IMG/VR virus record: IMGVR_UViG_3300046777_001793 | Location: 56,529-120,528 of that record | Direction: 5' to 3' (one strand) | DNA from: a virus | Length of the DNA: 64,000 nt | Shown here: positions 980-64,000 of the stretch, in pieces | Layout of the letters: the number at the start of each line of letters is the position of its first letter | Position numbering within the stretch: position 1 is the first letter of the stretch | Notes under the pieces: generated by a model | Database searches by the model: none | Seen by the model: the letters and a program-made list of their open reading frames with translations, nothing else | What the model was told of the DNA's origin: nothing | Translations under genes and position numbers: made by a program

Positions 980-980
980 A

Positions 981-33964: not shown

Positions 33965-34136
33965 CATTGATGAACAAGACATAATAAATGTCGCAAAAGG
34001 CATTAATAAAGAATTAAGTGCTGAACAAATAAACAAAGTATTGCACATGTATCCACATGAAGAAGAATGTGATCCAACAGGAACATGGAATTTAATTGTA
34101 GAACATTGTATCTACAAAGTGATTAATGAAAACTAA
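33954..34136 (+). CDS. hypothetical protein
   Basis: Coupled ORF. Confidence 0.55.
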   Translation: MVSNIDEQDIINVAKGINKELSAEQINKVLHMYPHEEECDPTGTWNLIVEHCIYKVINEN

Positions 34137-45631: not shown

Positions 45632-46177
45632 ATGGATTTAGTAGAAGACTTAAAAACATATTGTCAAAAAAGCACAATGTTTTTATGGCCCATGTTGGCT
45701 TTACCAACAAATATAAAACCAATATCCACTTACCTTGTTGTAGATGGAATTGAAACAGATACTCCGGTATTATATGCATTATTTCCAAACACAACCATGA
45801 AGAATGTATTGCTAAAGCAATCTATCATGAGTCATAAAATGTTTGAGTATGTTATTAATGATGGAGATTTTGACATTGTAGTATTCAACTTAAATGAAAT
45901 TGACAAAGACTATTTATACGTTATTAATGGTAAATATTCTCACATTTCACAAAGCAATAAAGTTAAAATTGTAAGCTCAACAAAAAATAAATTAGCAGAG
46001 ATTGGATTATATCCATCAAAATATTATGATTTGTATAGAGATGAATTAGAGATTGACTTTGATGAAAAAGAAGGCCCAGAACTACTGGACCTTCCTGATT
46101 TCAATTGTAATGAAAAATTACATGTTTCAGATAGTGTAAAAAACTATTTAAGTAAAATAGTCACATCACTATCTTAA
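45632..46177 (+). CDS. hypothetical protein
   Basis: QKSTMFLWP..GKYS; last gene of the + strand block. Confidence 0.7.
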   Translation: MDLVEDLKTYCQKSTMFLWPMLALPTNIKPISTYLVVDGIETDTPVLYALFPNTTMKNVLLKQSIMSHKMFEYVINDGDFDIVVFNLNEIDKDYLYVINGKYSHISQSNKVKIVSSTKNKLAEIGLYPSKYYDLYRDELEIDFDEKEGPELLDLPDFNCNEKLHVSDSVKNYLSKIVTSLS

Positions 46178-49100
46178 AGTATGATCTTGTTTTAATCCAT
46201 GGCGAGGATCTATTATTTTACCATCTAAATTAAATTGGTACTTCATATAAAGATTAAATGCTTTATTGTTGTACCATTTAGTTTCAGCACCTTCCTTAAT
46301 ACCTTCTTGCCAAATATAAGGACCAGCATCTTGTTCGTAAGTATCACCATTTACAGCATAACCAAATCCATCAATGATGTCTTTAAAAATGTTGTTTTCA
46401 CCTACTACTGAACCAGACATAATTAAATTTGGCATAGAAGCAACTAATCCTGAATTATAAGGATCCCATGGTGTTACAGGAAGCATAGATTCTTGCTCTT
46501 TGATAATTCTATTTACAATCCTAAGAGCATTCATTTTAAACCATTCCATAGTAGAAAACCTATTACCCCATTGTACAGTCTGATTAGGTTGTACAAGGGG
46601 TAAATTAGGTACACCATTCATTTTTTTCATCATTGCATGTGCACCTTCTTCTCCTGGTGAAAAAGTAAAATCATTCTCCCCATTATCATCTTCATCATAA
46701 TGTGAAAGTCTTTGTTTTAATAACCTCAACATTATGTTAGTTGTAAGAAGTATCAATAAAGAATACAATGCAGTTTTTTGTGGAGCATTCAGTTTTCTTT
46801 TTGAATTTAGTATTGTTGCTATAGCTGTAGCAGCACCTACAAATGTTCCAAGTTCTCTTTGTTGAGTAGAATAATTCTTTGTAGCTGTACCATAAGTTCC
46901 TGTTTTTTTGTTAAACTTCATGTTATAATGTCCACTCAACATACCTGGAATAAACTTCATAATAAAGAATGTAGTTTTTACCCAAATATTTCTGAAAGCA
47001 TCAGGTTCGTTAAAGTCACTTACCGCACCAATATTCTTTTGAATAATTCTTTGGTGAACATTCTTAATTTTTTTTAATTTTTCACCCATTACAATTCTAC
47101 CATCAGAGTCATAAGATATTTTCATATCAGATGGAACTCCTTTAATAGTAACAACTCTTCCTTCATCATCTAATGTAAGAGCATCATAGAGAGCAACTTT
47201 TTTGCCATTAATTTCAAAACTATTATGTCTTAATATAGCCAAAAACTGATGAACAGGAACAGAATCACCCATATATTTTCTATCTGTAAATCTAAGTGTA
47301 CCAGCTCTAAAATCTCCCCAAACAGTTCTTGCACCAAATGTACCTGCATCTTTTTTCATCAAGTCTGGTACAGCATCAGTAACACGTAATAATTGTATTA
47401 ACGGATCTATTTCACCCGACTTATATCTTGCAGCCATAAGTTTTTTAACAGTATTAAATGATTTAGCTCTAGTCATTACTAAATCATTTAAACTATAATT
47501 ATCACCAGTTGCTCTTGAATAAAGTAATGTTTTACCTGAACCGTAGTTTGCAGTAGATGAAACAGCATTAAAACCAAACCAAAGAACAGAAGCATGCTTT
47601 TGCATGTAACTCATAAGTTTTAAATAACTTCTTTGAAATCCTGTTGAAAAAATAAATTTAGGATCAATAACCACATCTTCACCAGCAAGATGTTTATCAA
47701 GTGAATGCTGTATTGCTCTTAATCTTTTTGATTCACTACCGTTTAATTTAGCATTAAATAAGTTTAAACCTTTTAATTTATCTACATAAGACTTCATTTC
47801 AGGTGACATAGCAATATCCTTAATTGTTCTATTAAACAATTGCATAAATGGCATTGCTTTTCTTGCAGACTTATAATGCTCAATTGAATAAGATTGTAAA
47901 CCAATTGATGCAATTATATTTGTAGAAACATCATTAGCATTTAAATGATATAAACCAGTAATAGGTCTTGTCAAAGGTTCATCCATTTTAGGAGTTGCTA
48001 AACCAAAATCAACATCATCCGCTTGCTGTCTAAACACGTTGACAATAGATCTGATTTTAGCCATAAAGTATTCACCAAAACCTTCTCTTCTTTTAAGAGT
48101 ACCATAAAGAGATTTTTCAGTTCCAGATTTTCTAATATTTGGATAACTGATGTAACCTTTTTGAGAAGCATCTAATCCTTTTTGATTATCTAAATGATGG
48201 TCTTTAATCATTAGCATAGCATCAAAAAGCTTTCTGTCTTCTTCAAACATTCTCTGATAATCATCATCAATATAGCGGCGGTCATTAGGATCTGTTTTTG
48301 GCAACCATCTCCCACTATTATCTACGTTAGCTATAACAAGAGTTTCTGCTCCAGTAACAGGATTAACATCAATATAATCTCTTTCTATTTTTTCTCTAAG
48401 AAATTCTGGTTTAATTACTCTTGACCTATAGTTCATATTAGGAACTCTTGGAATACCATCAAGTTCAATATAACCATTAGGAAATAATCCATTTTGAGGA
48501 CTTAAAGGATTTGTAGTTGCTGCTCTTGTGTGGTAATAAGCAATATCCCTTGGAGCTGTAGTTGTCCAAGCTGGTGATTTAATATATTTTTCAACTAAAC
48601 CAATTGCTTGACCACTACTGTTATATTCAATTCTTTCAGCAAGATAGTGGTTATCAAAAAAGAAATCTCTAAAAGAAGGATCAGAACTAGCTAAATCTTC
48701 AAGAAAACTTACATTAGATAATAATTCCTCTAAATGTTCTTTAGATAATGAACCTGTAGAATAAATATCTTCACCAAACAATGCATCAATTTCAGTTGCT
48801 ACTGCATCAAGAACTCCTGTATTATTAAACACAACATCATTAAAAGCAACCAAATAATCATCAGTTGATTCTGTTATTGACATTTCACGTAACTCTTTTT
48901 CAATAGCACGTAATTCAACAATATCATTAAAATTAATAAGACTTTGTGAAATTTTTTGTTTTAAAATATCGTCATAGTATATATAGCGTTGTTCTTCTTG
49001 ATATGTAAGAGTGCTATATGTAGCTTTATTTTGTAAGAAAACAAAATCTTTATAATCATCACCAGTTAAACCACTTAACTGTAAATAAGAATCTTTTGCT

Positions 49101-52100
49101 CTATCTATTTCTTCAGCAAGTTCAGTAGCTTTTCTTTGTTGAGCAGATGTTAGATTAAACCCACTATATTGACCAGCTTCATTTTTTGTAGGCTTTAAAA
49201 TGTCTGTATAAAGTTTTTCATAAATACCAGAAATATCTTGAATAGAATTATTTACAGCAATAAGATCAGCCATAATTTCATTTCTTCTATCTACTAATTG
49301 CTTTCTTTTTTCAAAATAAGCATCATCAATTTCTACACTTGTATTATACTTTATCCACTTTTCAATTGCTACTTTACGGTCATTACCTTGAATATTTGAT
49401 GCATCAAGTCCATGTAAAAATGTGTCAAAACTATTTTCAAATTTCATTGGTACATCAACATATTCATAGAAATCTTTAGTCTTTTCTTTATATTGATTAA
49501 GTAATTCAGCAATTGCTAATTCATCACCAGTCTTGTCATTACCATTAGCATCAACTTTACTATACAATTGTCTAAACTCAACCCATAATTTACTAAGTTC
49601 AATCTCAATATCAAAACTTGTAGGATCATGCATTGTGTTAGCTGTAAGCATACGCATTCTTGTAAATACATCATCAATGCGTTCTTGAGCCATTTCCCCT
49701 ATTGGAGAATCCATCATATAATCAAACTCATAAACTTCATCAACACCATCTCTATTCATATATTCTGCTTCCCATTGCTTATAAAGCTTAACTGCTTTAT
49801 TGAAAGCTTTAAGATTTTCAGGAGTTGGATTTAATGTATGAGTGTCTTTTGCTTCTTGAATTTTAATTTCTAATAACTTTTTATCAGCTCTCCAATCTTT
49901 AAAATTATTAGCAAAAATCCATTCTTCAGAATCTTCAAATCCTGCTTTAGCAATAGATAATCTTTCATACTCTAATTGCTGTTCAGGTGTTCTATTTGTA
50001 ATAACAGATAATTGACTCCACTTTTCTCTTTCTTTTGCTGAAAGTTCATTTCTTGTATTAATTATCCTATCTTTCTTACCAATTGCTCTACCCAAAGCAT
50101 TTTCACCAAAAAGTTTATTTGCGTGAACAGTTCCTTTAAGTTTGCTTTTTAATTTGGCAAGAAGTTCTGCTTGTCTAGCATTGGCATTTCCGGAAAGTTC
50201 ATTAAAAAATTGTGAGATATAGTTATGGAAACCACCAACAATATCATCACTAGAATTTAAATAACCTGTTCCAATAGATGATAACGCACCTACATCACCC
50301 AATGTATTTCCAATAAGAGCTTTTAGTTGCTCTTTTGATATACTTTGAGAATACATACTCATTTGTTTTAAATAAGTGTATCTATTCTCATCTCTGTTTG
50401 CAGGAAGAACTTTTTCTAAATTACTTAATTCAGTATGTTCTGCTGGAGTTAATCCATACCATTGTTTGTATCTTCTTTCATATTCAGCATAAAGATTTGA
50501 ATCTTTTAAAGCTTGTAACTCACTCATAGCTTCATCTTCAATAGGCTGATTAATTTTTTTCATGTGTTCATAGAACTCATCAAAGACAGCATCTGAAAAT
50601 GTCTGTTTAACTTTATTAGAAAGTTGATTGAGTTTACCTTTGCTACTAATATATAATTGAGCAATTGGATCTTGCGTATTATATAAATCAAAGTAACCTT
50701 TAGAAATATTGTCATAAAAATTTTGCCAATTTTCAATATACATCTGCATAGCTAACATCACCTCAAAATCATCTCTTGTAAGTTGATTTGCTCTTAGTAA
50801 GTCAGCTCTTTCATTTAATTTTTCAAATACCACATCAACATTTGCTAACGCTGTAACAAATAATTCAATCTTGTGCTTTACAATTTCAGCATCTGTAGCA
50901 GTTGTATTATCATAAAGTTCTAATCTTTTTATTGCTCTTGTTCCTTTTGATGAAAGCTCATTAAGGTTTTTACGTATAGTTTGTAATATACCTTCATTAA
51001 AATCATCAGAAAGTTCAGCTTTTAGTGTAGCAAAAATTGAGTTTTCTTTAGTTAAGTTACCTACTTGTTTTTGAACAAGCTCATAGAAATCATCAATAAC
51101 CTGTTGTGTTCTTTCAAGACTTGCTTTTGTAAGAACATCTTGAACTTCTTCTTGATATTTTCTTTGGAACATTACAATATCATCCTCGGTAATGAAATCT
51201 GTATTTAATTCAAACATTTCACCCTCATTCAACATATCAAGAAGTTCTCTTAATGTAGTATCCGGTTTTAATTTAGATACATTAACATTTCTTCCAAATG
51301 CTTTTCTTAAAAACTGTTTTATGTTAAATAGAAGTTCTTTAAACCAAGACTTTTTCTCATACCCAAAATCCTTGTTCATTCTTTCCATAGTCTGAACCAT
51401 AACTTCTTCCATAAATTCAGGACTGTTCTCTTTTAGTTCAGGGTAGTATTTTTGGACATAAGTAAATAAATCAAAACCATCATCTGATTTTACTACATCA
51501 CTATACAGTTTGTTAAACAAATCAGGATTATTTTTTGATAAAGCTTTAATTATTGGGTGAGCAAACTCATGTAATACTGTATCATGATTAAATAAACCAG
51601 CAACAAAATAAACTTTACCTTTCATAAAGAAACCTGCTGCTTTTGGAGCATCAGGAAACATTACTTCAAACTCTTCTTCAGTAATTACTTCATAATCCAC
51701 ACCAAGTTGATTAGAAAGCCTCATCATTACTTCAGTAGCCTTTCTTTTGTTTTGAGATTCAAAAATTTCTTTTACTTCCTCAATACCTTTTAAATCATCA
51801 ACCAGTTCTTCTTCTTGATCTATTTGAAATACTGATTCATCTAATTCAGGTTGAATATCTTCAATTTCTCTATTCTTAAAAAGAATTTTATCAATAACAT
51901 ATTCTGGACTTCTAACTTTTCCATTTTGTTCAATAACATCTGTAAATGCTTCATCATACCCTACAACTTCAACAAGAGCATCAAACTTTACTTTATCTTC
52001 TTCAGATAAATTAAGTGGCTTACGCTTTAAATAAGTAACTGTTGATTTTGATGTTGGTGTTTGAACATCAGTTTCAGGTTTAGAATCCCATGTTTGTTTT

Positions 52101-52330
52101 ACACCAAAGAAACCAGGGTTTTCATTTTCTTTTATAGCATCAGTCTGTTCAAACATATCAGGTGTATTTTCTTCCCTAATTTGTAATCCCAAATCATCAA
52201 GTGTAGGAAAAGAACCACTAGGGTTCTTCTCCATCCACACTCCAACTTTTGCTTTTAATATTTCTTCATTTAAACCTGTGACTTGTTGTAAGTTAACAAA
52301 GTCTGGGTGAGTAGTATTAACACATATCAT
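46169..52330 (-). CDS. giant virion cargo (ejection) protein with N-terminal zincin-like motif
   Basis: 2053 aa; LHEFAHP..EEVMV; coupled downstream of the vRNAP gene, as in crAss-like phages. Confidence 0.75.
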   Translation of the reverse strand: MICVNTTHPDFVNLQQVTGLNEEILKAKVGVWMEKNPSGSFPTLDDLGLQIREENTPDMFEQTDAIKENENPGFFGVKQTWDSKPETDVQTPTSKSTVTYLKRKPLNLSEEDKVKFDALVEVVGYDEAFTDVIEQNGKVRSPEYVIDKILFKNREIEDIQPELDESVFQIDQEEELVDDLKGIEEVKEIFESQNKRKATEVMMRLSNQLGVDYEVITEEEFEVMFPDAPKAAGFFMKGKVYFVAGLFNHDTVLHEFAHPIIKALSKNNPDLFNKLYSDVVKSDDGFDLFTYVQKYYPELKENSPEFMEEVMVQTMERMNKDFGYEKKSWFKELLFNIKQFLRKAFGRNVNVSKLKPDTTLRELLDMLNEGEMFELNTDFITEDDIVMFQRKYQEEVQDVLTKASLERTQQVIDDFYELVQKQVGNLTKENSIFATLKAELSDDFNEGILQTIRKNLNELSSKGTRAIKRLELYDNTTATDAEIVKHKIELFVTALANVDVVFEKLNERADLLRANQLTRDDFEVMLAMQMYIENWQNFYDNISKGYFDLYNTQDPIAQLYISSKGKLNQLSNKVKQTFSDAVFDEFYEHMKKINQPIEDEAMSELQALKDSNLYAEYERRYKQWYGLTPAEHTELSNLEKVLPANRDENRYTYLKQMSMYSQSISKEQLKALIGNTLGDVGALSSIGTGYLNSSDDIVGGFHNYISQFFNELSGNANARQAELLAKLKSKLKGTVHANKLFGENALGRAIGKKDRIINTRNELSAKEREKWSQLSVITNRTPEQQLEYERLSIAKAGFEDSEEWIFANNFKDWRADKKLLEIKIQEAKDTHTLNPTPENLKAFNKAVKLYKQWEAEYMNRDGVDEVYEFDYMMDSPIGEMAQERIDDVFTRMRMLTANTMHDPTSFDIEIELSKLWVEFRQLYSKVDANGNDKTGDELAIAELLNQYKEKTKDFYEYVDVPMKFENSFDTFLHGLDASNIQGNDRKVAIEKWIKYNTSVEIDDAYFEKRKQLVDRRNEIMADLIAVNNSIQDISGIYEKLYTDILKPTKNEAGQYSGFNLTSAQQRKATELAEEIDRAKDSYLQLSGLTGDDYKDFVFLQNKATYSTLTYQEEQRYIYYDDILKQKISQSLINFNDIVELRAIEKELREMSITESTDDYLVAFNDVVFNNTGVLDAVATEIDALFGEDIYSTGSLSKEHLEELLSNVSFLEDLASSDPSFRDFFFDNHYLAERIEYNSSGQAIGLVEKYIKSPAWTTTAPRDIAYYHTRAATTNPLSPQNGLFPNGYIELDGIPRVPNMNYRSRVIKPEFLREKIERDYIDVNPVTGAETLVIANVDNSGRWLPKTDPNDRRYIDDDYQRMFEEDRKLFDAMLMIKDHHLDNQKGLDASQKGYISYPNIRKSGTEKSLYGTLKRREGFGEYFMAKIRSIVNVFRQQADDVDFGLATPKMDEPLTRPITGLYHLNANDVSTNIIASIGLQSYSIEHYKSARKAMPFMQLFNRTIKDIAMSPEMKSYVDKLKGLNLFNAKLNGSESKRLRAIQHSLDKHLAGEDVVIDPKFIFSTGFQRSYLKLMSYMQKHASVLWFGFNAVSSTANYGSGKTLLYSRATGDNYSLNDLVMTRAKSFNTVKKLMAARYKSGEIDPLIQLLRVTDAVPDLMKKDAGTFGARTVWGDFRAGTLRFTDRKYMGDSVPVHQFLAILRHNSFEINGKKVALYDALTLDDEGRVVTIKGVPSDMKISYDSDGRIVMGEKLKKIKNVHQRIIQKNIGAVSDFNEPDAFRNIWVKTTFFIMKFIPGMLSGHYNMKFNKKTGTYGTATKNYSTQQRELGTFVGAATAIATILNSKRKLNAPQKTALYSLLILLTTNIMLRLLKQRLSHYDEDDNGENDFTFSPGEEGAHAMMKKMNGVPNLPLVQPNQTVQWGNRFSTMEWFKMNALRIVNRIIKEQESMLPVTPWDPYNSGLVASMPNLIMSGSVVGENNIFKDIIDGFGYAVNGDTYEQDAGPYIWQEGIKEGAETKWYNNKAFNLYMKYQFNLDGKIIDPRHGLKQDHTLR

Positions 52331-55300
52331 TTTGTACAGTTTGCTAAGTTTTTTTGTTCTTCCAAAGATAGAGATAAAAATTGTTCTTGAGTCATACTGG
52401 TTGCCATACCTTTTGCTTTTAAATTAGATTTATACATATCCCATAAAGCCAAATTTTCACTTATATCATCAAATAAAGATAATTGAGTAGCAACTTGAGT
52501 AGGTTGGTTACTTATTGTTGGTTGATTTAATTTATTTAATATTCTTTTTTGTTTTTCATAAAAACTATTTCTTTGTTCATTAGTAATAACATCCGTATAA
52601 TCAATATTTAATGCATTTCTGATAATACTATCTTCATCAGAAAGACCTACTTTTTCTAAAAATATTAATTCATTTTCTTCAATACCTCTTGCTTTTAATT
52701 CTTGAAGTAATTGTTTTTCAAAATCAATATCTTCTGTAGCATAAGAACCTCCTTCATTATATCTATTATATTCCGCAACATCTGATTCAGTTAAAACTTT
52801 ATTGTAAGCATCAACTAATTGCAAACCTGTTAATTTAGAAAATCCATGATTAATTTCTGTTTTATGAATAATAAATTGTCCAGCAGGAATAATAATATTT
52901 TCATTAGAAATAAATCTTTCTTCACCTTCATCACCAATAACCCTATTACCATAGGATTGTGTTCCACCTTCTTTATTTAATGGAAAAATCTTTTCCGCAT
53001 AATCTTTATTTATTTCAATAATAAAAGGATTTTTAGAATATCTATTCCCATAATCTTCTGCTAAACCTCTATTATCTGCAAAAGAAATTCCTTTAGATTT
53101 AAACAATGAATCCTCAGTAACTTGCAACACAAGATTTCCTTTATCATCTAATGTAGGTTTTTTTTCTTGACCTCTGAATAAAGAAGAAGTAAATCCAGTA
53201 GATTTACTAGCAACTTGAGCAGGTTGAGAAAATTTACTCCAAGTACCAATAAGTTGACCATCAACTGTAATTTCAGAATAGTTATAACCTTTAGCTTCCA
53301 TATTAGCATAAAGTCTTTTTTCTCCTGTATTGTAACTACTAGCATCAATGTAGGCTTTGTTATCAGTAAGAATAGTAGCTCCTGCTTCTACAGCTTTAAT
53401 AGCTTCTTTAATAGTTCTATCTTGTTGAGTTTTTTGTTGTTCTTCAGTTCCTCTTCTTCCTCCAATAGAAACAAATATTACATCATTATCAGAATAATTA
53501 CCTGTATTAGCTAAAGCTCCTGCTTGTTGCCTGTAATTTTCTGTAGAGCTTCCAGTTATACCCTCACCAAAACCAATAAATTGAGTAGCAATACTAGCTT
53601 TGATAGTTGCTTTTTTATCAGCAGCTTGTATTGGTGTAACATTAAATATATTTTTTTTATCAAAAGAAAAACTTAAGTTTTGTGTTTGTTGTAATTTATT
53701 TACATCAGGAGTATGTCTTAATGTAATACTATATCTAACGCCTTGCTCACCTTCTTTTTCAACACCATGTTTATAGTTTAATTGAGAATCATATCCCATA
53801 ACTAATACGTGTCCATGTTTAGCATCTACAGTAAGATCATTTCCTGCATATTGTTTAATACCTTTAAAACCAAATTTACGTTGTGCACCTAAAGATAATG
53901 TCAATACAGTAGGGTTAACTTTACCATCTCTACCTGTTAAATTAACTTCAAGATCTGTATGATAACCTAATCCAGTTGAAAGTTCAGAATATTTATTGAT
54001 TAAAGCTGTATCAAAATAACCAGGTTTAACACCCATTCTTTTTTCAATAAGTCTTACAGTTTTTTCAATCCATTCAGGCATTTCTGCTTTAGCATGTTTC
54101 TTGTAAGATTCTCCTGAACCATAAGCATAATCAATTGGACCGTAATAAAGATTTTTTAATCTCCATTGTTTACCTGCTAAAAGAACTTGTTTAGATAATT
54201 CTGCTTCAAATTCTTTATCCATTTTAGCAAATAATCTATCAGCTTCATTTCTATCAAAAACTTCACCATCATAAATTTCAGCACCTTTTATCTCTTCAAT
54301 TTTTCTAAAGTTTTTCATAACAGGACCTTGAACAAAACCAGAAGAATTAGTTTTCAATCCTTGAGGGTTAAACACTTCTTCTTTTTGAAGTCTTTTAGCT
54401 CTACTTGACATAATAAAAGGAAGAACTGAACCCATTAAATGTTTCTCCAAATAAACAGCAGCAGGACTAACACCTATCTTTAAAGCGTTACCATTAGTAT
54501 CAACTAAAAGTTTAGATAAGTTCATTCTTTCAACAGCATTACCTTGGAAATAAGAAGTCAAAGCTTGTTCTGCAATCTGCAATCCATTTTTAATAAGATC
54601 TGATTCAGAAAGACCTTTCATTTTTTCCTTTATAACATTCATTACTCCTGTAATCTGTTTACCAAATGCATCATACATACTAACTTCAGGTTTAGTTACA
54701 TCATAATAAGCTGAAGTCTTACCTTCTAATGACTTATTAAATGAATAATATTTCTGAAAATCAGGACCATATTCAACTACCATCTTATAACCATTATTTC
54801 TTAAATACTGTTTTGCATAAGTTGCAATACCACCAGGAGCAGCACTTATATTAAATGTACTTACACCTGCAGCAATTGCTTTTGAGATTTCAGGAACATA
54901 CTTTTCATTAAAGAAATTTTTAACTGATTCATTATATTCTTTTAATGATGTATTAGCATAAGCATCTTCTTTTAATGAAGCTCCAAATATCCATACAGCA
55001 TCATTAGCAACGTATTCATTTTTATTTAAATCATTCTTTAATTCATCAATATAAGCATGGTGTTTACTTTGATATTTAGGTGCTTGTTTAGCTTTAAAAG
55101 CAATACCTTTTGTTGAACGTGAAGAAATATATTGGTCTGTTACAAATTCACCAGATCTTTTTACTACAGAATTAGCAATACTCATTGCTCCAATTCTACC
55201 CATTTTAGATTTACCAACCAATATAGGTAAGTTACCTCTATTGTCAACACCTAAATGCTCTAACAACATTCTGTCAATTTCATTCTGATCTAAATATTCA

Positions 55301-58300
55301 GGTGCTACAACTTTCTTTTTAGGGTATGCAATTTTAACATCACCATACACTTTAAGTATTTCTTCAACTTGTTCTAATGTAACATCTTCATCAGATTCAA
55401 ATAACATTTCTGGATTAAAAATAAACTCAAAATCAGATTGATTAGCTTGACTTATATTGTTAAACATGTGAACATTACCATACACATAAGCATTCTCTTT
55501 AATTTGAGTTTCACCTTTACCGTAATCCAAATTACCGTCAACAGTATAATTAACACCTTTACCTCTTGAGTTCCATTTATTATTTAAAACTAAATTGGAT
55601 ATTTTATCATAAAACTGACTAAGTAAACCAACATTAATTGGATCAACTTCACTTTTAACTCCCTTATTATATACAACTTTAGCAAACTTATTTTCATAAG
55701 ACCTAAAAGTTTTATAAGCTTCATCAAACAATTGTTCCATTAAATCAAAATCTAATTGATCATAGACTGTATTTAATATAAAATTTTGAGAAACTAATGG
55801 GCCCATAAAATACTTTGATGCTGCATTTAAACCACCCTGCATTACAAGATAATGGTCAAACCCTGCAAAAAATTCAGCAACTTCTGGTGCTATATCATCA
55901 TTACGTAATTCATGTAAATTTTCTACATAAGTTTCCATTAATTTTTTACCGGTATTTTTTGGTAAAAAGATATTAGACTGATAAGCTTTATAATCAGTAT
56001 TGCTTTTTAAGTCATTTATTAAAAGTAAATTATTAAGGTGTGGATGTTTCATTCTCATTCTCTTAATGATTGCATCTGCACCAACATAACTATTAAACAA
56101 ACTATTTGCCGGTTTTAATTGGTATAATGTTATAGCTTTAACCAAATGAGTTCTTGTCATTTTAGGGCTTACCAAAAAGTAATACTTTTCAAAAAGCTCT
56201 TGATCAGAAATAGATTTTAAGTTGGCAACATTTTCCTGAAATAAAAACTTAAACTTTGCATATTCTTTAACATCAGTAACTCCATCTTTTCTATAGATAC
56301 TTTTGATCATTGGATCAGTTGTCATAGAAAGTTCATTTCTAAGTAAGTTTGAATTAAAAGAAACAGTCAACTTATCAGAATCACCTTCAACAATATCAAT
56401 AGGATATTTAGAATTTAAATCTTCAACAACATCAAATGAAAGCATAGTACCATCTTCTAATACAACAGTTGAAGTATTAGAATTATAAACAGCATTTTGA
56501 TACAAGAACCAAATAAAGTCATTTTTAAATGCACTTCTTGATGTATCTGTAAAAGGCATAGCTTTTTTAACATGATCTTCTTTAGAAAACTTAATTGCCA
56601 TTTGATTGACAATTGGATTGTTTTTAATTTTAAAGAATTGCTTAAATAAATCAACAATAAGTTTATTGTTGTTTAATGTACCAACAGGATTCTCTTCAAA
56701 TTCTTTTTTCCAAGATTCAGGAACAACACTTCTTTTGCTAAAAAAGTTTTCTTCTTTAATAATATTGTTTTCTGCATCTGTGATATTAGCAACCTTAGTT
56801 GTATCATGCTTGTTTGCTTGTTGAAACTCTGTCAATTTATTTGACATTTCTTCAATCTGAAGATAATGAGAAAAATAAATAACATCATCATCATTAGGTG
56901 TTAGTGCACCAACTCTACCCCATAAACTTTCAAAGTCAAATTTAGCATCAAATTGATTATCAATGGAAGCTGGGTTTAAACCTTTAAATTTAGGTTTACC
57001 AAATAAAGATGGATGATTCTGAATAACCTTACCATAAGCAGCTTGACTCGCAGCTTTTGGGTTAAATTCAACAACCGGATTACCTTCTTCATAACCAATC
57101 TTAGAATATACACCTTGAAATTCTTTCTTGATTTTATTATACTCCATTACTAACGGATTAGAAGAAAGTGCAACAGCATCTTCCAATTCTACTCCGGACA
57201 TAAGCATAAATAACAATGTAGGTGTATTCTCTTTATTACCTTGAATATTAAATATCCAAGCATCTTTAGCAACATCCACATATCCATTAATTAACTGTGA
57301 AATTGTATCAGCAATTAATTTATTATTTACACTAGAAGTTCTTTTACCTAAAGCAATTCTTTTAACATCATATTTACCAACTTTTTCTGCTGAATAATTA
57401 TGAGCTAACTTTAAAGCATAAGATCTAAACTTTTCAATTTCTTCTTTATTTTGAGTTTTTAAAGCATTCTCAAAGCGTTCTAAAGCTTCTAATGTAGGAG
57501 CATTTAGTTTAGAATCAAATGTTGTAAATATTGCATAGAAAGTAGAAACAACTGCCGCTATACCAAGAGAATCTTTACCTACAGAGTTTTCTTGTTGTTT
57601 AGCCAAGTTATATTCATAATCAAAAATAGTTGTTGGAGATATAACTTTTGAACCTGTTACATCATCATGAATTTTTTCAAACTTATTAAACTTATGCTGA
57701 ATAGCATCTCTTACTCTTTTTGACAATGGTAATGCATCATCAACACTATTAGGAGTAATAAGATCTTTAATATTACTAGCATCTAATATTTTTTCAGTAA
57801 GTAATTGCAATATTTCATTCTCAATACCTTTTGTACTTGAGTTTTTCATTGCTTCTACATTCTCTGAAATTTTATTTGATGTAGCGTTTAATTTATCATA
57901 CAATGCATTAGACTTATCAATTAAAGCCATAACATCAGCATCTTCTTTAAATAATTCTTTTTCTTTAGCAGATCTTTCTTTACGGATGTTTTTAATTTCT
58001 TGTTCTAATTCTTGAATCTTTAATTCAGCTTCTTCAGTAATTTGTTTCTTTTTATTCTTACCAGTTTTAGCTGTAGCAATAGTAGCAATAGTATTGTTTA
58101 ATGCTTCTATTTTCTTTTTATTCTTACCAATTAACTTGTTTTGTTTTTCAAATAATGCCTTAACTTCATCCTTAATTTCAAGTTTTTTAGAAGAGAATAA
58201 TTTATCTTTTTCTTTTTTGACAGCATCAATATCTTTCTTGATAACTTTAAGATCTTCTTTCAAGTTATCATTCTCATCTTTAAGTTGTTCATAAGGAACA

Positions 58301-61300
58301 CTAAGCTGTTTGTATTGATATAGTTTTACTTTACCATTGATTCTTGTAATACTTGGCAACATAAAAAACATTTTATCAATATCATAATCCGCACCAGTCT
58401 TAGCAACAATTTCTGAAGGAAGAATAACAATTGGACCAGCCCATTCAGGTAAAAATTCAGCAACAATAGCAACATCTAATGCATTAGGACCTTGAGTAGG
58501 GATACGCACACCAGGAAACTGTAGTAATGATTTATTTTCTGCAACCCAGTTTTTATCTTTTATAGCTTGATTTAATCTAACTCTTGAAGCTTCCCAATCA
58601 ATATTACCATCATTATCTTTTACAGCAATAATTTTTTTATCAGAAGGATGAGTTAAATAAATTAAGTTTTTAAAATCACCCTGTAATGAAATTTTAACTT
58701 CCATTGCAGCAACAGTAATCTTACCATCAGCATCTTTTTCAATTGGATAAAACTTTAATTCATTTGTACCATACTCTGCTAACTGTTCATCAGTAGGCTT
58801 TTCAAAATTTTCAAAAATAGCACCAGAAACTTGTACCATAGATTCACCATTAACTTTAAATCTACGTAGTTTCTTATCAACCAATGCTGTTAATATTGTT
58901 TCAATTTTTTGTGAGTTAAGATCAAATGACAAGTCTTCAATTAAATTACCATTTACATCTGCAATACCTTCAATCTCATGCTCTAAAAAATCATTTTTCT
59001 TTAACTCTTTTTTGATGTAATCAACAATTGCTTTTGTATCACCAACGTATGTTTGTTTTTCAGCATCCCACTTCATTGAAATATCTTCAAGAAGCTCATC
59101 TTTAAAAACTTGTCTTAATTTACTAATAGAACTAAAATATCTTTCTTTCCAGGCATAAGCTTTATAAGTTCTCTTTTTATCAAGAGATTCTGCTTTCCAT
59201 TGTTCTTCTGTTCCTTCATACTCAACAGGAACACCATTCTCCATTAAACCATGAAGAACCATTTTACGCATCTGTGTAGCAAATGTAGTTTTACCTTTAT
59301 ATCCTTCAGCAAGATAAATAACATTCTTTAAATGACTTGCTGAAATAATATTCTTAACAAAAGGTTTATTGTCCACAACATTTCTATCTTTATCATAGAA
59401 GTTATCTAATTCTCTTTGTAAAACGTATTTTCCTTGTTCATTCAATGTACGTTTTACTCTTGATAATGAAGACAATTTAGAACCTGATTTCATTACAGTA
59501 TAATCAACTCCTTCACGCATCATTTTTTCATGAAGCTTTTGCAGTTTAGTTCCTTGAATTAATGCAGGTATTAATGGCATTAAAGAGTATTTATGGAAAC
59601 CTTTTCCATCTAACGGTTGGTTAAATTTATCTTCTGCTCTAACAGAACCAAAGTATTGGAACTTTCTTACAGGGAATGTAGTAAGATAATCTTCAGTAGA
59701 AATCTTTTCACCTTTAATCATTTTTTGATAAAGAGCTTCCTGACCGTCAGACCATTCACCATAAGAAAAATTTAACAATCTGTACATGTCAAATGAAATC
59801 CAACCTTGACCGTCTGCTTCATCCATACCTAAATAAGATTCTGCTTTCTCGCCAATTATTTCTCTAAATGATTCAATGTATTTTGAATTTGCTTTTGACT
59901 CTTCTAATACAGCAGTATTGATTTGTCCATTATAAACTCTAGGAGTTGTTCCTTGGTAGAATTTAGATGAGTATGCAAATGCTTCAAACTTTTTACTGTT
60001 AACAAAATCTAGAAATGCTTGATCTACAGCAGAAATTTTACCACTTGAAATTAAACCAGCATTACGCTTATGAAAATCTTCAGAAGAGATTTTATACAAT
60101 GCAATATCACCTAAAAATAAATGAACAAAGTTCATGTTATTTATAAAGTTATTAAGAGTAAATGTTTGAAACATTACTTTTTTTGCAGCATCTTCTTCTA
60201 ATATTTTTTCATCTCTATTAAGAGTCATGTATTGTTCTACAGTTGACTTTTCAAAAGGAATATCATTATAATTGATTTCAATATTTAAAGCTTTACTTTT
60301 AAAATATTTAACCATGTCAGAATCAATTAGTGCTTTTAAATCATCAGATAAAAGACTATCTATATCAAAAACAGAAATAGGTTCATCATCAAGTAAATTT
60401 TTTAATTTCCCTCTTGTATCTTTATCTAATAAATTTAAAAATTGCATAAAATCCTGACCTCTATCAAGGTATTCAAAATCAAATACAAACTCTTCATCAG
60501 AACTTAATATTTCTTCTTTAAGATTTTTTAATCTTTGAATCCTTACAAGTTCAGCACCTAAATGATATTTAAACTGTTCATACAACAATGTTCCTTTGTA
60601 ACCAGGTGAAAAAATTTCATGTACTTCATTCTTTTCAAAAATAAGTTTTCTACTTGCATCACCAGTTTTATTACCACGTACTTCATCATTAACTAATTGA
60701 GTACCGTAAAAAGCAAGAGTTGTTGACTTAGCTTCCATACGTGTAACTTCTTGAACACCTTCAAGTGTCATGTAGAAGTCAGTAATAAATTTAGTTTTCT
60801 CATCTGAAGAAATTGATGCAATACCTTTTTCTACTTCAGTAGTTTTTGTTGTACCATCTTCTTCAATTTTAGTTTGAGTATATTTAATTTTAGAACCTGT
60901 TAAGTTTTCCAACTTAAATTCAACTTTAGGGTTTTTTTTACCTCTAAGAACTGAATTAGGACTATCTAAATTAAATAACTGAACAAATGCTTTATTACCT
61001 GCAACAAATGGATTAATATTAATATCAAACTTCTCCATTCCAGGCATAGCCAATAATTCATCATAAGAATTTGCTGTAGATAAAGCGTGCATCTCTAATG
61101 TTAAAGATGAGTTTAATGCTTTCTCTGATTGCTTTTCACCATAAGCAGTTGTAGCCATGAATGAAACATTATCATTGCTATAGCGAGTATGTAAGTTTTG
61201 TAAAGCATTTTTAATACCATACAATGCAGGTTGATTTTCAATTATCTCATCTTTACCAACTTTTGTTTTATAATTGAAACCGTTAAAAATATCTGAAAAC

Positions 61301-64000
61301 TTATACAGCTTACCACCATTTTGTTTAATCTTATTTTCAAGCAACTCTTTAACATAACCTAAATAAGCAGAATCAAAATTAAGTTCTTTAGAACCTTTTG
61401 AGATAATTTCTCTTACAACAGGATCATCAACTACATTAATTCCAAAATAACTCAAAAACTGAAATGGTTCAGAATAATATTTTGAAGCAGCAGTAGATTC
61501 ATATTCTTTTTTATTTTCCTCATTAATGTATTCATTTCTTGTCAAAAATGGTTTTAAGTTTAATGCAGGATTTTTAAGTAAATGTATCTTTAAGTCTGGT
61601 TGAAATTCATCAAAGATTGCTTTAACATCAATGTATCTTTCACCTTTTTCATCTTCTTTAGCGTATGGACTTAATTGTAATAAATCATTAAAATTAGATT
61701 GCCATTCATTACCAATGTAAAGTGAATCTGTTATAGCTCTACCAGAATAAATAGATAACTCAACTTGAGCTTTTTCATTCTCAATAGTATCTGTCTTTTC
61801 AATAACAAATTGTCTTAATAAAATATCAGCTTTATTTAATGATTGCCAAAATGATACCCATTGTTTTTGCTCACTAAATGTTGTATTTGGAGATGAAGGA
61901 TCACCTAATTTAAATAACAATTCTTTTATTTCATTATCAGTTTTAGCAGCATGGCTAAGTTTATCATACATTTTTGTACGTGAAACTGTGTTAGTCAATA
62001 TTTTTGCAACCTTAGCAATCATATTCTCTAATGGAACATGTCTGTTAAAACCTAACAAGTTTAAATCAGGAACACCTTTACCATTCTTTGTATGCTTTGT
62101 AATTGTAGATAAGATTTCTTTTGTATGAGCATCCATTAAATCTTGTAATGAAGTATCATTATTAGTTGTATCAAAAATTAATTTCTCTACTTCTTTACCT
62201 TCATCATCTGAAAGTTTAGAGTCCAAATCTTCTACATCTTGACTTTCTTCTTTCTTAATTTCAGATTTAATTTCAGACTCAATGAAATTAAAATTGTAAC
62301 CAGTATATTCATTAAGGAATAATCCAAATAAACTTGCGTAACCTTTATCTCCTTTAATTTCATCTACGCTGTTAATATCACCTAAATTAGCTAATGCTTT
62401 AACAAGAACATCATGACTAAACTTGATGTTTTTATTTTCAGGGTTAGCTTTAAGTATTCTTTCAAATCTATTCTTTTGTTTCACTAAATTATTAGTAACA
62501 AAAGTAATTGCAGAATCTAAAACAGGTTTATGTTTTTGAACAGCAAATACACCGTAAGCAGTATATTTATCTCTAAGTAATTCTTTAGTTGTTTCAAATT
62601 CTTGTTTAACAGCTTCATATTTTTCTGGCTCTAACTCTTCATCAATTGATGACAATTGAAGCATAAGATTACTAACTTTTTTATTGTTAGCATTAATACC
62701 ATAAGTTAGGTAATCATTAAACAAAGACTTAATGGAATCCATAACTAAATGAACTTCTTCCATAGTAAAGTCTGTTGCAATTTCATTAGACTTATACAAA
62801 GCTTCATTAGCAGATGGAACAAACTTATCTACACTAACATTGTTAGAATATAACGCTTCAAAAGTTTTACTAGCTAATTTAGATGCTCTGTTTAAGTTTC
62901 TTGCTTCAGAGATACGCATATCACCAAAAATAGCTTTTAACATAGTCAAAAGTCTATCAAAAAACTCTCTAACTTTTACATTCAATTTAGATTTACCTAA
63001 TCTATTTTGAGAATAAGCATTAAACTGTTCAGCCAAATATTCTTCTATATCAAGATTTGATGCATCTGAAAACTTAATGTCTTTTTCTTTACCATGGACT
63101 GTAACTTTAAATGATCCTGGTTGTTTACGCATAACATCATAAATTGCATTTCTTTCACTTTCTGAAAGTAAAGTTTGAGTAAATGCGTGAAAAGCTTCAT
63201 GGAATACATCTGTACCCATAGAACCTTTGTATAATGTTATAGCATTTTTAAAGAAATCAGCTACAAAGTTTGGTCCTTTTGCATTAATCTCATCAGTAAT
63301 ATTCAATGAAATTAACTTACTTAAATTATGATTTCTAAACCACTCCAATGCTTTTTCTTGCATTTCTGTTGATATAGTAGGTCTTGGATTAGCAAATGAT
63401 TGAAACCATGCTTCATCTTCTTGCTCATCAATTTCTTCATCAGTAACGCTATCTTTAATTACTGGTTCACCCATTGAAAGATATGGATAATTAGAAATTA
63501 ACGCATTGTCTTTATTTAATTTAACATTTACTGTTCCAAATTTAGCAGCATATTCTTTTAAAGAGTAATAATCAAAATTAATTACTTCTTCTCCTGAATT
63601 TAAAGTTTCTATACTATTTGGAATTTTAATAATTTTTAAATCTTCTGAAAAAGTTCCAGTTGGAATACCAAGTGAAAATAAAGGTTTTTCTAATAAAAAG
63701 TAAATACCTTGTGCTTCATCTAAATAAACATCACCAACTTGAGCATCTTCTTTAGATTTAATATTATATCCAAATTTAACTAAAGACTCTTTATTATATT
63801 TTAATGCTATAGCAATAGGATTATTAACATGTGCTTTTAATGTATCAAGAACTTCATTTAATGCAATATCTCCTTCAACTTTAATAGAACCATCTTTACT
63901 TTGGATAATAACAAATTGTTTATCTCCTATAATAATTCTATTCTTTTTTATACCTGCAAATTTTTCTTCTTTAGTTGATACAGATGAAATAGATATATTC
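52327..64000 (-). CDS. virion RNA polymerase polyprotein, 5'-partial (about 3890 aa within the window)
   Basis: Catalytic GADYDIDK (58375-58389), RIPTQG, ADGQGW; zincin HEAFH (63187-63201); C-terminal AlkB and ART-like domains. I read the frame from 63475 to 64000 and found no stop, so the true start is probably outside the window. Confidence 0.9.
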   Translation of the reverse strand, partial: NISISSVSTKEEKFAGIKKNRIIIGDKQFVIIQSKDGSIKVEGDIALNEVLDTLKAHVNNPIAIALKYNKESLVKFGYNIKSKEDAQVGDVYLDEAQGIYFLLEKPLFSLGIPTGTFSEDLKIIKIPNSIETLNSGEEVINFDYYSLKEYAAKFGTVNVKLNKDNALISNYPYLSMGEPVIKDSVTDEEIDEQEDEAWFQSFANPRPTISTEMQEKALEWFRNHNLSKLISLNITDEINAKGPNFVADFFKNAITLYKGSMGTDVFHEAFHAFTQTLLSESERNAIYDVMRKQPGSFKVTVHGKEKDIKFSDASNLDIEEYLAEQFNAYSQNRLGKSKLNVKVREFFDRLLTMLKAIFGDMRISEARNLNRASKLASKTFEALYSNNVSVDKFVPSANEALYKSNEIATDFTMEEVHLVMDSIKSLFNDYLTYGINANNKKVSNLMLQLSSIDEELEPEKYEAVKQEFETTKELLRDKYTAYGVFAVQKHKPVLDSAITFVTNNLVKQKNRFERILKANPENKNIKFSHDVLVKALANLGDINSVDEIKGDKGYASLFGLFLNEYTGYNFNFIESEIKSEIKKEESQDVEDLDSKLSDDEGKEVEKLIFDTTNNDTSLQDLMDAHTKEILSTITKHTKNGKGVPDLNLLGFNRHVPLENMIAKVAKILTNTVSRTKMYDKLSHAAKTDNEIKELLFKLGDPSSPNTTFSEQKQWVSFWQSLNKADILLRQFVIEKTDTIENEKAQVELSIYSGRAITDSLYIGNEWQSNFNDLLQLSPYAKEDEKGERYIDVKAIFDEFQPDLKIHLLKNPALNLKPFLTRNEYINEENKKEYESTAASKYYSEPFQFLSYFGINVVDDPVVREIISKGSKELNFDSAYLGYVKELLENKIKQNGGKLYKFSDIFNGFNYKTKVGKDEIIENQPALYGIKNALQNLHTRYSNDNVSFMATTAYGEKQSEKALNSSLTLEMHALSTANSYDELLAMPGMEKFDININPFVAGNKAFVQLFNLDSPNSVLRGKKNPKVEFKLENLTGSKIKYTQTKIEEDGTTKTTEVEKGIASISSDEKTKFITDFYMTLEGVQEVTRMEAKSTTLAFYGTQLVNDEVRGNKTGDASRKLIFEKNEVHEIFSPGYKGTLLYEQFKYHLGAELVRIQRLKNLKEEILSSDEEFVFDFEYLDRGQDFMQFLNLLDKDTRGKLKNLLDDEPISVFDIDSLLSDDLKALIDSDMVKYFKSKALNIEINYNDIPFEKSTVEQYMTLNRDEKILEEDAAKKVMFQTFTLNNFINNMNFVHLFLGDIALYKISSEDFHKRNAGLISSGKISAVDQAFLDFVNSKKFEAFAYSSKFYQGTTPRVYNGQINTAVLEESKANSKYIESFREIIGEKAESYLGMDEADGQGWISFDMYRLLNFSYGEWSDGQEALYQKMIKGEKISTEDYLTTFPVRKFQYFGSVRAEDKFNQPLDGKGFHKYSLMPLIPALIQGTKLQKLHEKMMREGVDYTVMKSGSKLSSLSRVKRTLNEQGKYVLQRELDNFYDKDRNVVDNKPFVKNIISASHLKNVIYLAEGYKGKTTFATQMRKMVLHGLMENGVPVEYEGTEEQWKAESLDKKRTYKAYAWKERYFSSISKLRQVFKDELLEDISMKWDAEKQTYVGDTKAIVDYIKKELKKNDFLEHEIEGIADVNGNLIEDLSFDLNSQKIETILTALVDKKLRRFKVNGESMVQVSGAIFENFEKPTDEQLAEYGTNELKFYPIEKDADGKITVAAMEVKISLQGDFKNLIYLTHPSDKKIIAVKDNDGNIDWEASRVRLNQAIKDKNWVAENKSLLQFPGVRIPTQGPNALDVAIVAEFLPEWAGPIVILPSEIVAKTGADYDIDKMFFMLPSITRINGKVKLYQYKQLSVPYEQLKDENDNLKEDLKVIKKDIDAVKKEKDKLFSSKKLEIKDEVKALFEKQNKLIGKNKKKIEALNNTIATIATAKTGKNKKKQITEEAELKIQELEQEIKNIRKERSAKEKELFKEDADVMALIDKSNALYDKLNATSNKISENVEAMKNSSTKGIENEILQLLTEKILDASNIKDLITPNSVDDALPLSKRVRDAIQHKFNKFEKIHDDVTGSKVISPTTIFDYEYNLAKQQENSVGKDSLGIAAVVSTFYAIFTTFDSKLNAPTLEALERFENALKTQNKEEIEKFRSYALKLAHNYSAEKVGKYDVKRIALGKRTSSVNNKLIADTISQLINGYVDVAKDAWIFNIQGNKENTPTLLFMLMSGVELEDAVALSSNPLVMEYNKIKKEFQGVYSKIGYEEGNPVVEFNPKAASQAAYGKVIQNHPSLFGKPKFKGLNPASIDNQFDAKFDFESLWGRVGALTPNDDDVIYFSHYLQIEEMSNKLTEFQQANKHDTTKVANITDAENNIIKEENFFSKRSVVPESWKKEFEENPVGTLNNNKLIVDLFKQFFKIKNNPIVNQMAIKFSKEDHVKKAMPFTDTSRSAFKNDFIWFLYQNAVYNSNTSTVVLEDGTMLSFDVVEDLNSKYPIDIVEGDSDKLTVSFNSNLLRNELSMTTDPMIKSIYRKDGVTDVKEYAKFKFLFQENVANLKSISDQELFEKYYFLVSPKMTRTHLVKAITLYQLKPANSLFNSYVGADAIIKRMRMKHPHLNNLLLINDLKSNTDYKAYQSNIFLPKNTGKKLMETYVENLHELRNDDIAPEVAEFFAGFDHYLVMQGGLNAASKYFMGPLVSQNFILNTVYDQLDFDLMEQLFDEAYKTFRSYENKFAKVVYNKGVKSEVDPINVGLLSQFYDKISNLVLNNKWNSRGKGVNYTVDGNLDYGKGETQIKENAYVYGNVHMFNNISQANQSDFEFIFNPEMLFESDEDVTLEQVEEILKVYGDVKIAYPKKKVVAPEYLDQNEIDRMLLEHLGVDNRGNLPILVGKSKMGRIGAMSIANSVVKRSGEFVTDQYISSRSTKGIAFKAKQAPKYQSKHHAYIDELKNDLNKNEYVANDAVWIFGASLKEDAYANTSLKEYNESVKNFFNEKYVPEISKAIAAGVSTFNISAAPGGIATYAKQYLRNNGYKMVVEYGPDFQKYYSFNKSLEGKTSAYYDVTKPEVSMYDAFGKQITGVMNVIKEKMKGLSESDLIKNGLQIAEQALTSYFQGNAVERMNLSKLLVDTNGNALKIGVSPAAVYLEKHLMGSVLPFIMSSRAKRLQKEEVFNPQGLKTNSSGFVQGPVMKNFRKIEEIKGAEIYDGEVFDRNEADRLFAKMDKEFEAELSKQVLLAGKQWRLKNLYYGPIDYAYGSGESYKKHAKAEMPEWIEKTVRLIEKRMGVKPGYFDTALINKYSELSTGLGYHTDLEVNLTGRDGKVNPTVLTLSLGAQRKFGFKGIKQYAGNDLTVDAKHGHVLVMGYDSQLNYKHGVEKEGEQGVRYSITLRHTPDVNKLQQTQNLSFSFDKKNIFNVTPIQAADKKATIKASIATQFIGFGEGITGSSTENYRQQAGALANTGNYSDNDVIFVSIGGRRGTEEQQKTQQDRTIKEAIKAVEAGATILTDNKAYIDASSYNTGEKRLYANMEAKGYNYSEITVDGQLIGTWSKFSQPAQVASKSTGFTSSLFRGQEKKPTLDDKGNLVLQVTEDSLFKSKGISFADNRGLAEDYGNRYSKNPFIIEINKDYAEKIFPLNKEGGTQSYGNRVIGDEGEERFISNENIIIPAGQFIIHKTEINHGFSKLTGLQLVDAYNKVLTESDVAEYNRYNEGGSYATEDIDFEKQLLQELKARGIEENELIFLEKVGLSDEDSIIRNALNIDYTDVITNEQRNSFYEKQKRILNKLNQPTISNQPTQVATQLSLFDDISENLALWDMYKSNLKAKGMATSMTQEQFLSLSLEEQKNLANCTK
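52488..53226. repeat. 19-nt direct repeat pair bounding the ART-like module
   Basis: TAGCAACTTGAGTAGGTTG (52488-52506) and TAGCAACTTGAGCAGGTTG (53208-53226); 18/19 identical, 720 nt apart, encoding QP(A/T)QVA. Confidence 0.85.

Follow-up and report, generated by a model that had tools for sequence, protein, structure and literature searches.

AlkB-type Fe(II)/2-oxoglutarate (2OG) dioxygenases occur in the replicase polyproteins of plant positive-strand RNA viruses (Flexiviridae and some Closteroviridae), where, in the passages of PMC544882 available to us, their position varies and their distribution is patchy. A few jumbo phages sporadically encode an AlkB-like 2OG- and Fe(II)-dependent dioxygenase (2OGFeDO), named by a single protein accession in the available passages of PMC7824862. 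The closest described polymerase is gp66 of Cellulophaga phage phi14:2, which is packaged in the virion, translocated into the host, needs the aspartates of its DFDID motif and transcribes single-stranded and denatured DNA. The gp65 protein has a zincin-like protease domain, and in some phages the three large proteins of the transcription block are fused as one polyprotein that is probably cleaved (Drobysheva et al., 10.1101/2020.03.07.982082, from the excerpted text). Here we describe an AlkB domain in the same giant open reading frame (ORF) as a crAss-type RNA polymerase (RNAP). It is encoded on a 64,000-nucleotide stretch (hereafter the window), positions 56,529 to 120,528 of IMG/VR record IMGVR_UViG_3300046777_001793. 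The record is a complete 120,528-base virus genome with terminal repeats, and the window, with a G+C content of 30%, is its last 64 kb. The source virus is a marine-type crAss-like phage.

An AlkB domain with an intact active site

The domain and its active-site motifs are located as follows.

52327..63999, minus strand: giant ORF, the virion RNAP polyprotein, with an ATG at 63474
About 53665-54354, minus strand: whole AlkB-type Fe(II)/2OG dioxygenase domain of 230 amino acids, N-terminal lid included (P0002)
53953..53961, minus strand: HxD of the iron triad, His3172-Thr-Asp3174 of the ATG-started ORF (H132 and D134 of P0002)
53767..53769, minus strand: distal iron-ligand histidine, His3236 (H196 of P0002)
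53716..53736, minus strand: RYSITLR, the RxxxxxR 2OG/substrate motif (R207 and R213 of P0002)

P0002 comprises residues 3041-3270 of the ATG-started ORF and was used for the structural comparisons and the model. Within the giant ORF, the Pfam family 2OG-FeII_Oxy_2 (PF13532) matches residues 3075-3253 (window 53716-54252, minus strand) over profile positions 11-194 of 194. The match scores 67.8 bits, where the cut-off is 31.2, with an E-value of 2e-18, and a six-frame search of the genome recovered it at 1.4e-21 and 73.7 bits. This match is far beyond chance. PHROG 21963, 'alkylated DNA repair', is matched at 4e-9. The two histidines, the aspartate and the two arginines are retained in 159 of 160 homologous domain rows, the remaining row having a gap, and H132, D134, G156, H196, R207 and R213 are invariant in two MAFFT alignments (80/80 and 70/70 sequences). 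The role given for RxxxxxR in the excerpted part of PMC544882 is binding of 2OG and substrate.

When the domain was compared with the Protein Data Bank (PDB) using phmmer, ALKBH2 (1.9e-4) and ALKBH3 (4e-3) came first, and E. coli AlkB reached 0.26. An AlphaFold2 model built from a 70-row alignment has a mean predicted local distance difference test score (pLDDT) of 91.0 and a predicted template modeling score of 0.88. Its top Foldseek match in the PDB is ALKBH3 bound to single-stranded DNA (ssDNA; 8jnk, E 3.3e-14), followed by ALKBH2 (3rzh, E 1.9e-13, TM-score normalized to the target (TMt) 0.79); next come ALKBH5 at 1e-11 and E. coli AlkB at 1.4e-10. The ALKBH3 and ALKBH2 chains have about 200 residues, and their alignments with the 230-residue predicted model span 212-228 columns. 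The predicted fold fits a double-stranded beta-helix core with an N-terminal nucleotide-recognition part.

The phage domain shares with human ALKBH3 and ALKBH2 the HxD...H and RxxxxxR motifs and the same predicted fold over nearly its whole length (Foldseek E 3e-14 to 2e-13, TMt 0.72-0.80). Unlike them it lies inside a protein of more than 3890 amino acids, and it is only about 20% identical to them. With E. coli AlkB it has in common the family and the predicted chemistry, but that enzyme ranks structurally below ALKBH3, ALKBH2 and ALKBH5. The NCBIfam AlkB equivalog NF011930 is matched at 1.1e-6 with 28.3 bits, far under its cut-off of 267 bits; the domain is an AlkB family member and not an ortholog of E. 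coli AlkB. Taken with the predicted fold, the intact active site has as its best explanation a catalytically competent AlkB-family dioxygenase.

A preliminary description of this DNA had proposed an intact, ALKBH2/3-like AlkB domain at 53705-54286. Both designations hold, the first on the PF13532 match with HxD...H and RxxxxxR all present and the second on the phmmer and Foldseek rankings. The motifs it quoted, LINKY (53989-54003), GLGYHTD (53953-53973), LSLGAQRKF (53872-53898), YKHGV (53761-53775) and RYSITLR, all lie in one minus-strand frame of the giant ORF. Its coordinates cover the catalytic core but fall short of the whole folded domain, which is wider.

Covalent linkage to a crAss-type RNA polymerase

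Two further motifs of the giant ORF relate it to the transcription proteins of crAss-like phages.

58372-58395, minus strand: GADYDIDK, the DxDxD catalytic motif of the crAss-type two-barrel RNAP, in the same ORF as AlkB
63181-63204, minus strand: FHEAFHAF, an HExxH motif found by regular expression, upstream of the RNAP and recurring in relatives

Using tblastn with residues 1300-2000 of the giant ORF we matched 90 phage records, all crAss-like or related, among them the IAS virus 'RNA polymerase' (1e-9) and phi14:2 g066, 'Catalytic RNA polymerase subunit' (2e-7). Single-sequence phmmer of the whole giant ORF against the PDB gave no match; gp66 (PDB 6VR4, 6vr4_A) was reached only with a profile of six giant proteins (A7), at E 5.3e-21 in three matched stretches. 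In this alignment ksGADYDvDk stands opposite ktGSDFDIDK of gp66, the site of the DFDID motif. The AlkB part of the six-giant profile matched ALKBH3 at 1.4e-6. The fusion to a DNA-phage RNAP, likewise claimed in the preliminary description, is confirmed by this homology and by the presence of GADYDIDK in the same ORF.

The window protein resembles gp66 and its transcription block in the homologous core, the DxDxD motif, the giant size and an upstream HExxH motif that may correspond to the gp65 module. Unlike the window protein, gp66 has 2180 amino acids, and no AlkB is reported in it in the excerpted text of 10.1101/2020.03.07.982082. The FHEAFHAF region matched no Pfam or PHROG family above threshold, and by analogy the HExxH module is presumed to be a gp65-like, zincin-like protease. 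With this motif upstream of the RNAP, the window protein looks like a fused transcription-block polyprotein.

The fusion recurs in uncultured lineages

A length-restricted search with the AlkB region returned 14 proteins of 2589-5514 amino acids, the window's own included, and PF13532 was precomputed in 14/14. An exhaustive representative search gave 633 matches at E <= 1e-3, with giants among many of the best. The regular expression [ST]G[AGS]D[FY]D[IVG]DK was found in 15 of the 30 matches of at least 1200 amino acids, and BLAST to the window RNAP region adds P0008, P0069 and P0024. In total, 18 giant metagenome proteins of crAss-RNAP type carry AlkB, counting the window's own and counting P0024, which is included by a short match at the DxDxD motif only and also figures among 11 giants that lack a clear crAss RNAP core. 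The IMG/VR locus L004 contains an ORF of at least 4651 amino acids with HExxH, DxDxD and AlkB.

In P0032, AlkB forms an insertion of about 215 residues within the conserved core of the RNAP, some 100 residues ahead of DxDxD; in the window protein the two blocks that flank it are separated by about 10 residues. AlkB therefore cannot be separable terminal cargo in this protein. Identity to the window protein is 43-59% for the AlkB segment and 24-36% for long segments of the RNAP body in nine of nine relatives (P0005-P0013).

The preliminary description had suggested a survey of distribution, which we carried out on deposited crAss-like and related records. AlkB was found by tblastn (E <= 1e-3) in 0/90 of the deposited phage records that share the RNAP, and the fusion in metagenome giants. 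Searched with the domain, 50,697 GenBank phage records yielded one tblastn match, a 595-kb uncultured phage; megablast of the gene against GenBank phages found no match. Its absence from the RNAP-sharing records places the fusion, as judged from these searches, in uncultured lineages outside the deposited gut crAss-like phages. An IMG/VR scan with a single protein found no relative and one with nine close sequences gave just 3 loci, so the distribution in IMG/VR is under-sampled. Relatives at the DNA level are L004 and L005 only, with protein identities of 46-53%.

A FastTree phylogeny of 159 domains, a quick tree with many long branches and indicative only, contains a 97% supported split of 78 versus 81 rows. 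The 78-row side holds all 18 crAss-type fusions, an N4-type fusion and 9 of the 11 other giants, while the 81-row side consists mostly of short proteins; short stand-alone AlkB homologs and the fused phage domains fall on opposite sides.

The eleven AlkB proteins without a clear crAss RNAP core have 1423-3708 amino acids and contain AAA_30/PIF1 helicase, NADAR, DUF7831, PD-(D/E)XK, M78 and cpYpsA domains. Plant-virus replicases were ruled out as the source of these long matches, as domains of RNA-dependent RNA polymerases (RdRp) or viral methyltransferases were found in 0/11. P0078 (metagenome, 3708 amino acids) combines AlkB at 1241-1383 with the Pfam family N4_RNAP_helical and matches the solved N4 virion RNAP at 2e-30. 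This protein appears to carry AlkB on an unrelated injected polymerase, a second independent fusion. It was the only one of four other giants checked to match an RNAP in the PDB; P0093 had ALKBH chains as its sole matches, and there was no match for P0043 or P0027.

Accessory domains found beside AlkB in relatives are NADAR (P0006), PIF1/AAA_30 helicase (P0005, P0011-13) and DUF7831 (P0010, P0011, P0014, P0015). By eye we also noted, as candidates only, a DprA/SLOG-like 'GIGSR...SGAAxGxD' (P0004, P0016) and an ASCH/PUA-like stretch in a relative.

Presumed substrate-specificity positions differ from ALKBH2

The phage domain differs from ALKBH2 at two positions. In the phmmer alignment, the residue after HxD is leucine in the window (HTDLE) and aspartate in ALKBH2 (HRDDE); we take the latter to contact the exocyclic amine of N1-methyladenine (m1A) and N3-methylcytosine (m3C). 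Across the 18 RNAP-fused domains this residue is alanine in ten, asparagine in four, leucine in two, and serine and aspartate in one each, and among 100 short homologs it is aspartate in 41 and asparagine in 29. Aspartate after HxD is a specificity feature, not a family-defining one. At the second position, LAG of the window aligns with VFG of ALKBH2, presumably the finger that intercalates in the duplex through its phenylalanine. Alanine at the phenylalanine position would fit a preference for single strands, if the phenylalanine has that role. After the second histidine the window domain has an acidic stretch, EKEGEQ, where ALKBH2 has what we take to be a basic one.

Comparison with other viral AlkB enzymes and polyvalent proteins

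Like the AlkB of the plant-virus replicases, the phage AlkB is embedded in a polyprotein that carries the virus's own polymerase, and it too is variable in position and patchy in distribution. The replicase-AlkB fusions to which the preliminary description had pointed are documented in print (PMC544882, in its excerpted text). Unlike the plant viruses, the present virus is a double-stranded DNA (dsDNA) phage, and the polymerase is a DNA-dependent two-barrel RNAP, probably delivered with the virion, rather than an RdRp. With the jumbo-phage AlkB it shares encoding by a dsDNA phage and sporadic occurrence, our single GenBank phage match being the 595-kb record. The jumbo-phage enzyme, as far as the available passages of PMC7824862 describe it, reads as stand-alone, with no fusion mentioned, and is not on a virion RNAP.

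The window protein also resembles the polyvalent proteins that Iyer et al. (2017) describe from phages and conjugative elements, in which several unrelated enzymatic domains share one polypeptide; a zincin-like peptidase and delivery would be further likenesses. It combines RNAP, AlkB and HExxH, while helicase, NADAR and DUF7831 occur in addition in relatives. Iyer et al. 2017 (PMC5512222) make no mention in their main text of AlkB, 2OGFeDO, dioxygenase, NADAR or ASCH, its supplements lying outside the search.

Literature searches gave a similar picture. For AlkB with crAss-like phages or crAss RNAPs, the best-ranked papers contained no mention of a fusion and included one unrelated review; for AlkB with polyvalent proteins, only the jumbo-phage paper (PMC7824862) was found; for AlkB with N4-like phages or virion RNAPs, there was no mention among the best-ranked papers. 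Yutin et al. 2021 contains neither 'dioxygenase' nor 'oxygenase', although an entry in a supplementary table could predate the finding of the AlkB fusion. What is new is the AlkB domain fused to dsDNA-phage virion RNAPs, a fusion absent from the searched literature; AlkB and virion RNAPs are each well known.

Layout of the giant ORF and genome context

The giant ORF is laid out as HExxH motif, RNAP core, unassigned regions, AlkB, domain X and C-terminal tail. It encodes 3715 amino acids from the first ATG (63474) and 3890 to the end of the window and record (63999), where the frame is still open. The ORF runs past the window, and once the two ends of the record are joined it can be aligned with the N-terminus of P0004. 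The other features are these.

53224-53673, minus strand: domain X, a well-conserved 150-amino-acid alpha/beta domain directly after AlkB (model pLDDT 92)
46169..52330, minus strand: neighboring 2053-amino-acid ORF in the same block, sharing 4 bases with the giant ORF
362-1105 (minus strand) and 5782-46177 (plus strand): other window content, comprising a WDGH-domain protein, DnaJ, ThyX, a SegE-like GIY-YIG endonuclease, a glucosaminidase, Nmad5 and a PRA-PH-like pyrophosphohydrolase

Beyond the window, the giant gene has one in-frame TGA at record positions 249-251 (minus strand), about 340 codons from the start (MKICIT...). The close relative P0004 has serine at this site, and its N-terminal 700 amino acids align through the TGA in one tblastn segment at 61% identity. 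If the TGA were read through, the product would have about 4306 amino acids; the codon may reflect an error in sequencing, a genuine division into two genes or a site of readthrough. TGA is the stop of 16 of the 62 window ORFs of at least 100 amino acids, and genome-wide recoding is therefore unlikely.

The giant ORF has a cysteine near its C-terminus (window 52330-52350). A cysteine lies within the last 8 residues in 18/18 of the crAss-RNAP-type giants (..NLANCTK, ..NKEC and ..KACK, for example; P0004-P0016, P0024, P0032, P0069 and P0105 besides the window's own), and one is also present at the C-terminus of the upstream 1574-amino-acid ORF (..LNTCK) and of many small domain-X proteins. As background, 6 of the 62 window ORFs have cysteine in their last 7 residues, and cysteine makes up 1% of residues overall. 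The C-terminal cysteine may be a packaging or processing signal.

Domain X is also found beside AlkB in P0009, P0015, P0017 and P0021, preceding it in P0015 and P0021, and as stand-alone small proteins; R74, T87, I88, E90 and D104 are invariant. It matched no Pfam or NCBIfam family and, in the protein atlas, only an unnamed cluster (0.75). Nor did its model have a clear fold match: the best Foldseek match had an E-value of 0.018 (Rossmann-type methyltransferases, TM about 0.3) and the best VIA-align Z was 5.2. The neighboring 2053-amino-acid ORF was assigned no family in Pfam or PHROG and gave no match in single-sequence phmmer against the PDB.

A Pfam inventory covered 51 other window ORFs. 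A spore photoproduct lyase-like radical SAM protein is encoded at 34126-34983 on the plus strand (Pfam SPL 2e-22; genome search 4.3e-24); it is a predicted direct-reversal DNA repair enzyme, which this phage would carry besides AlkB. The DNA methyltransferase families PF01555, PF02086 and PF00145 had no match in the 120-kb genome, in searches whose controls worked. The plus strand carries a replication module of a family-B-like DNA polymerase, a primase, DnaB-like and Dda-like helicases and an exonuclease. Over 92% of its length, the DNA polymerase aligns with the phi14:2 enzyme at 31% identity.

Discussion

We propose that an active AlkB-type dioxygenase is delivered with the virion RNAP polyprotein and acts, as infection begins, on early RNA or on phage DNA in single-stranded form, a reading we regard as evenly poised between right and wrong. 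Sequence and model establish what the domain is, its intact active-site residues, its ALKBH2/3-like predicted fold, its place on the RNAP polypeptide and its recurrence, while virion delivery in this phage, activity, substrate, timing and processing are inferred. By analogy with gp66, the polyprotein would travel in the capsid and be ejected together with the DNA into the cell. Once inside, the AlkB module, still attached to the polymerase or cleaved from it, would take up Fe(II), 2OG and O2 and strip alkyl (methyl-type) groups by direct oxidative reversal. Its substrates would be the single-stranded nucleic acid exposed at the start of infection, that is, the unwound phage template and/or the first transcripts, and the benefit would be that early transcription is not blocked on a genome that cannot be repaired inside the virion. 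Transcription-coupled repair of the template or of nascent RNA, or removal of host marks, is plausible. The recurrence of the fusion, the core insertion in P0032 and the N4-type fusion lend indirect support to a function of this kind, and the latter two speak for a link with the polymerase that is injected. The higher conservation of AlkB than of the RNAP body would be a sign of selection. We also count in favor of repair the presence of a spore photoproduct lyase and the lack of matches to three DNA methyltransferase families.

Several points weigh against this proposal. N1 of adenine and N3 of cytosine are shielded in duplex DNA, and packaged dsDNA should gather few lesions there. With leucine in place of the ALKBH2 aspartate after HxD, m1A/m3C specificity cannot be assumed, and canonical recognition may not hold. 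The place of AlkB varies, being C-terminal in most giants, N-terminal to HExxH in P0005 and in the middle of the protein in P0015, and the RNAP-fused domains fall into at least 2-3 clades of the FastTree phylogeny. As AlkB is also found in giants without a recognizable RNAP, what it is linked to may be the injected polyprotein rather than transcription itself. Variable position and RNAP-less giants together argue for generic cargo of an injected polyvalent protein, which fits as well as transcription coupling does. Finally, the higher conservation of AlkB could come from recent domain exchange rather than constraint. A broader version of the proposal, that AlkB is a working module for cleaning template or transcript on virion RNAPs, recruited independently by the structurally unrelated crAss-type two-barrel and N4-type single-subunit enzymes and in one lineage placed inside the polymerase core, is tentative and rather unlikely.

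Injected AlkB might instead serve counter-defense, removing base modifications made by the host or a previous host, or stripping protective methylation from host DNA, as one tool of an anti-defense polyvalent protein; we think this possible but unlikely. Its targets would be methyl marks that modification-dependent nucleases recognize, or damage caused by alkylating toxins or metabolites. Homologous giants pair AlkB with NADAR, PIF1/AAA_30, PD-(D/E)XK nuclease, DUF7831, cpYpsA and M78 peptidase, a mixture that Iyer and colleagues reportedly found in 2017 to be typical of injected conflict proteins. The noncanonical residue after HxD leaves room for another substrate, and as the three methyltransferase families had no match in the phage, the marks would be foreign. 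Yet the closest structures are repair enzymes, with ALKBH5, an eraser of N6-methyladenine, ranking below ALKBH3 and ALKBH2, and an oxidative enzyme would need to outrun nucleases. Moreover, to our knowledge no bacterial defense uses methylation of N1-A or N3-C. For the stand-alone AlkB-like enzymes of jumbo phages, resetting of methyl marks has been proposed (Iyer et al. 2021, PMC7824862, in its excerpted text).

The top structural and profile matches to ALKBH3, together with the plant RNA-virus replicase AlkB, offer a parallel for an RNA demethylase that would clear lesions from nascent early transcripts or change the methylation of host tRNA or rRNA. The covalent link to an RNA-making enzyme, inside which AlkB sits in P0032, points the same way. 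We nevertheless consider an RNA-directed role improbable, as there seems little to gain from repairing short-lived early mRNAs and the domain also occurs in giants that have DNA helicase and nuclease domains and no RNAP; sequence cannot separate a preference for RNA from one for ssDNA.

The varying position of AlkB and the swapped order of domain X and AlkB would also suit a cargo that the zincin-like protease cuts off and that then performs general repair later, for example on replicating ssDNA, with no tie to the RNAP. Polyproteins of this type are likely cleaved (10.1101/2020.03.07.982082, excerpted text). The insertion within the RNAP core of P0032 and the independent N4-type virion RNAP fusion speak against such a role, and a repair enzyme acting late needs no place in a virion protein, so that we hold it to be very improbable. 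That the domain is an inactive relic, or purely structural or binding, is hardly credible, given five catalytic residues kept in 159/160 rows, a confident and complete predicted model, and an AlkB segment that is the best conserved long segment of the protein.

The AlkB fusion is a new marker for an environmental branch of crAss-like phages. Domain X and the NADAR, helicase and DUF7831 domains of relatives suggest a wider set of nucleic-acid 'undo' enzymes on injected phage proteins. If AlkB is active and delivered with the polymerase, it would be the DNA-phage counterpart of the replicase-AlkB fusions of plant viruses, and these phages would supply the cell with direct-reversal repair or mark erasure ahead of all phage gene expression. 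Should AlkB prove to clean template or transcript for virion RNAPs, base alkylation of the incoming genome, whether environmental or inflicted by the host, would be a real barrier to the first phage transcription, and the phages would carry a transcription-coupled direct-reversal repair undescribed for any DNA virus in the searched literature.

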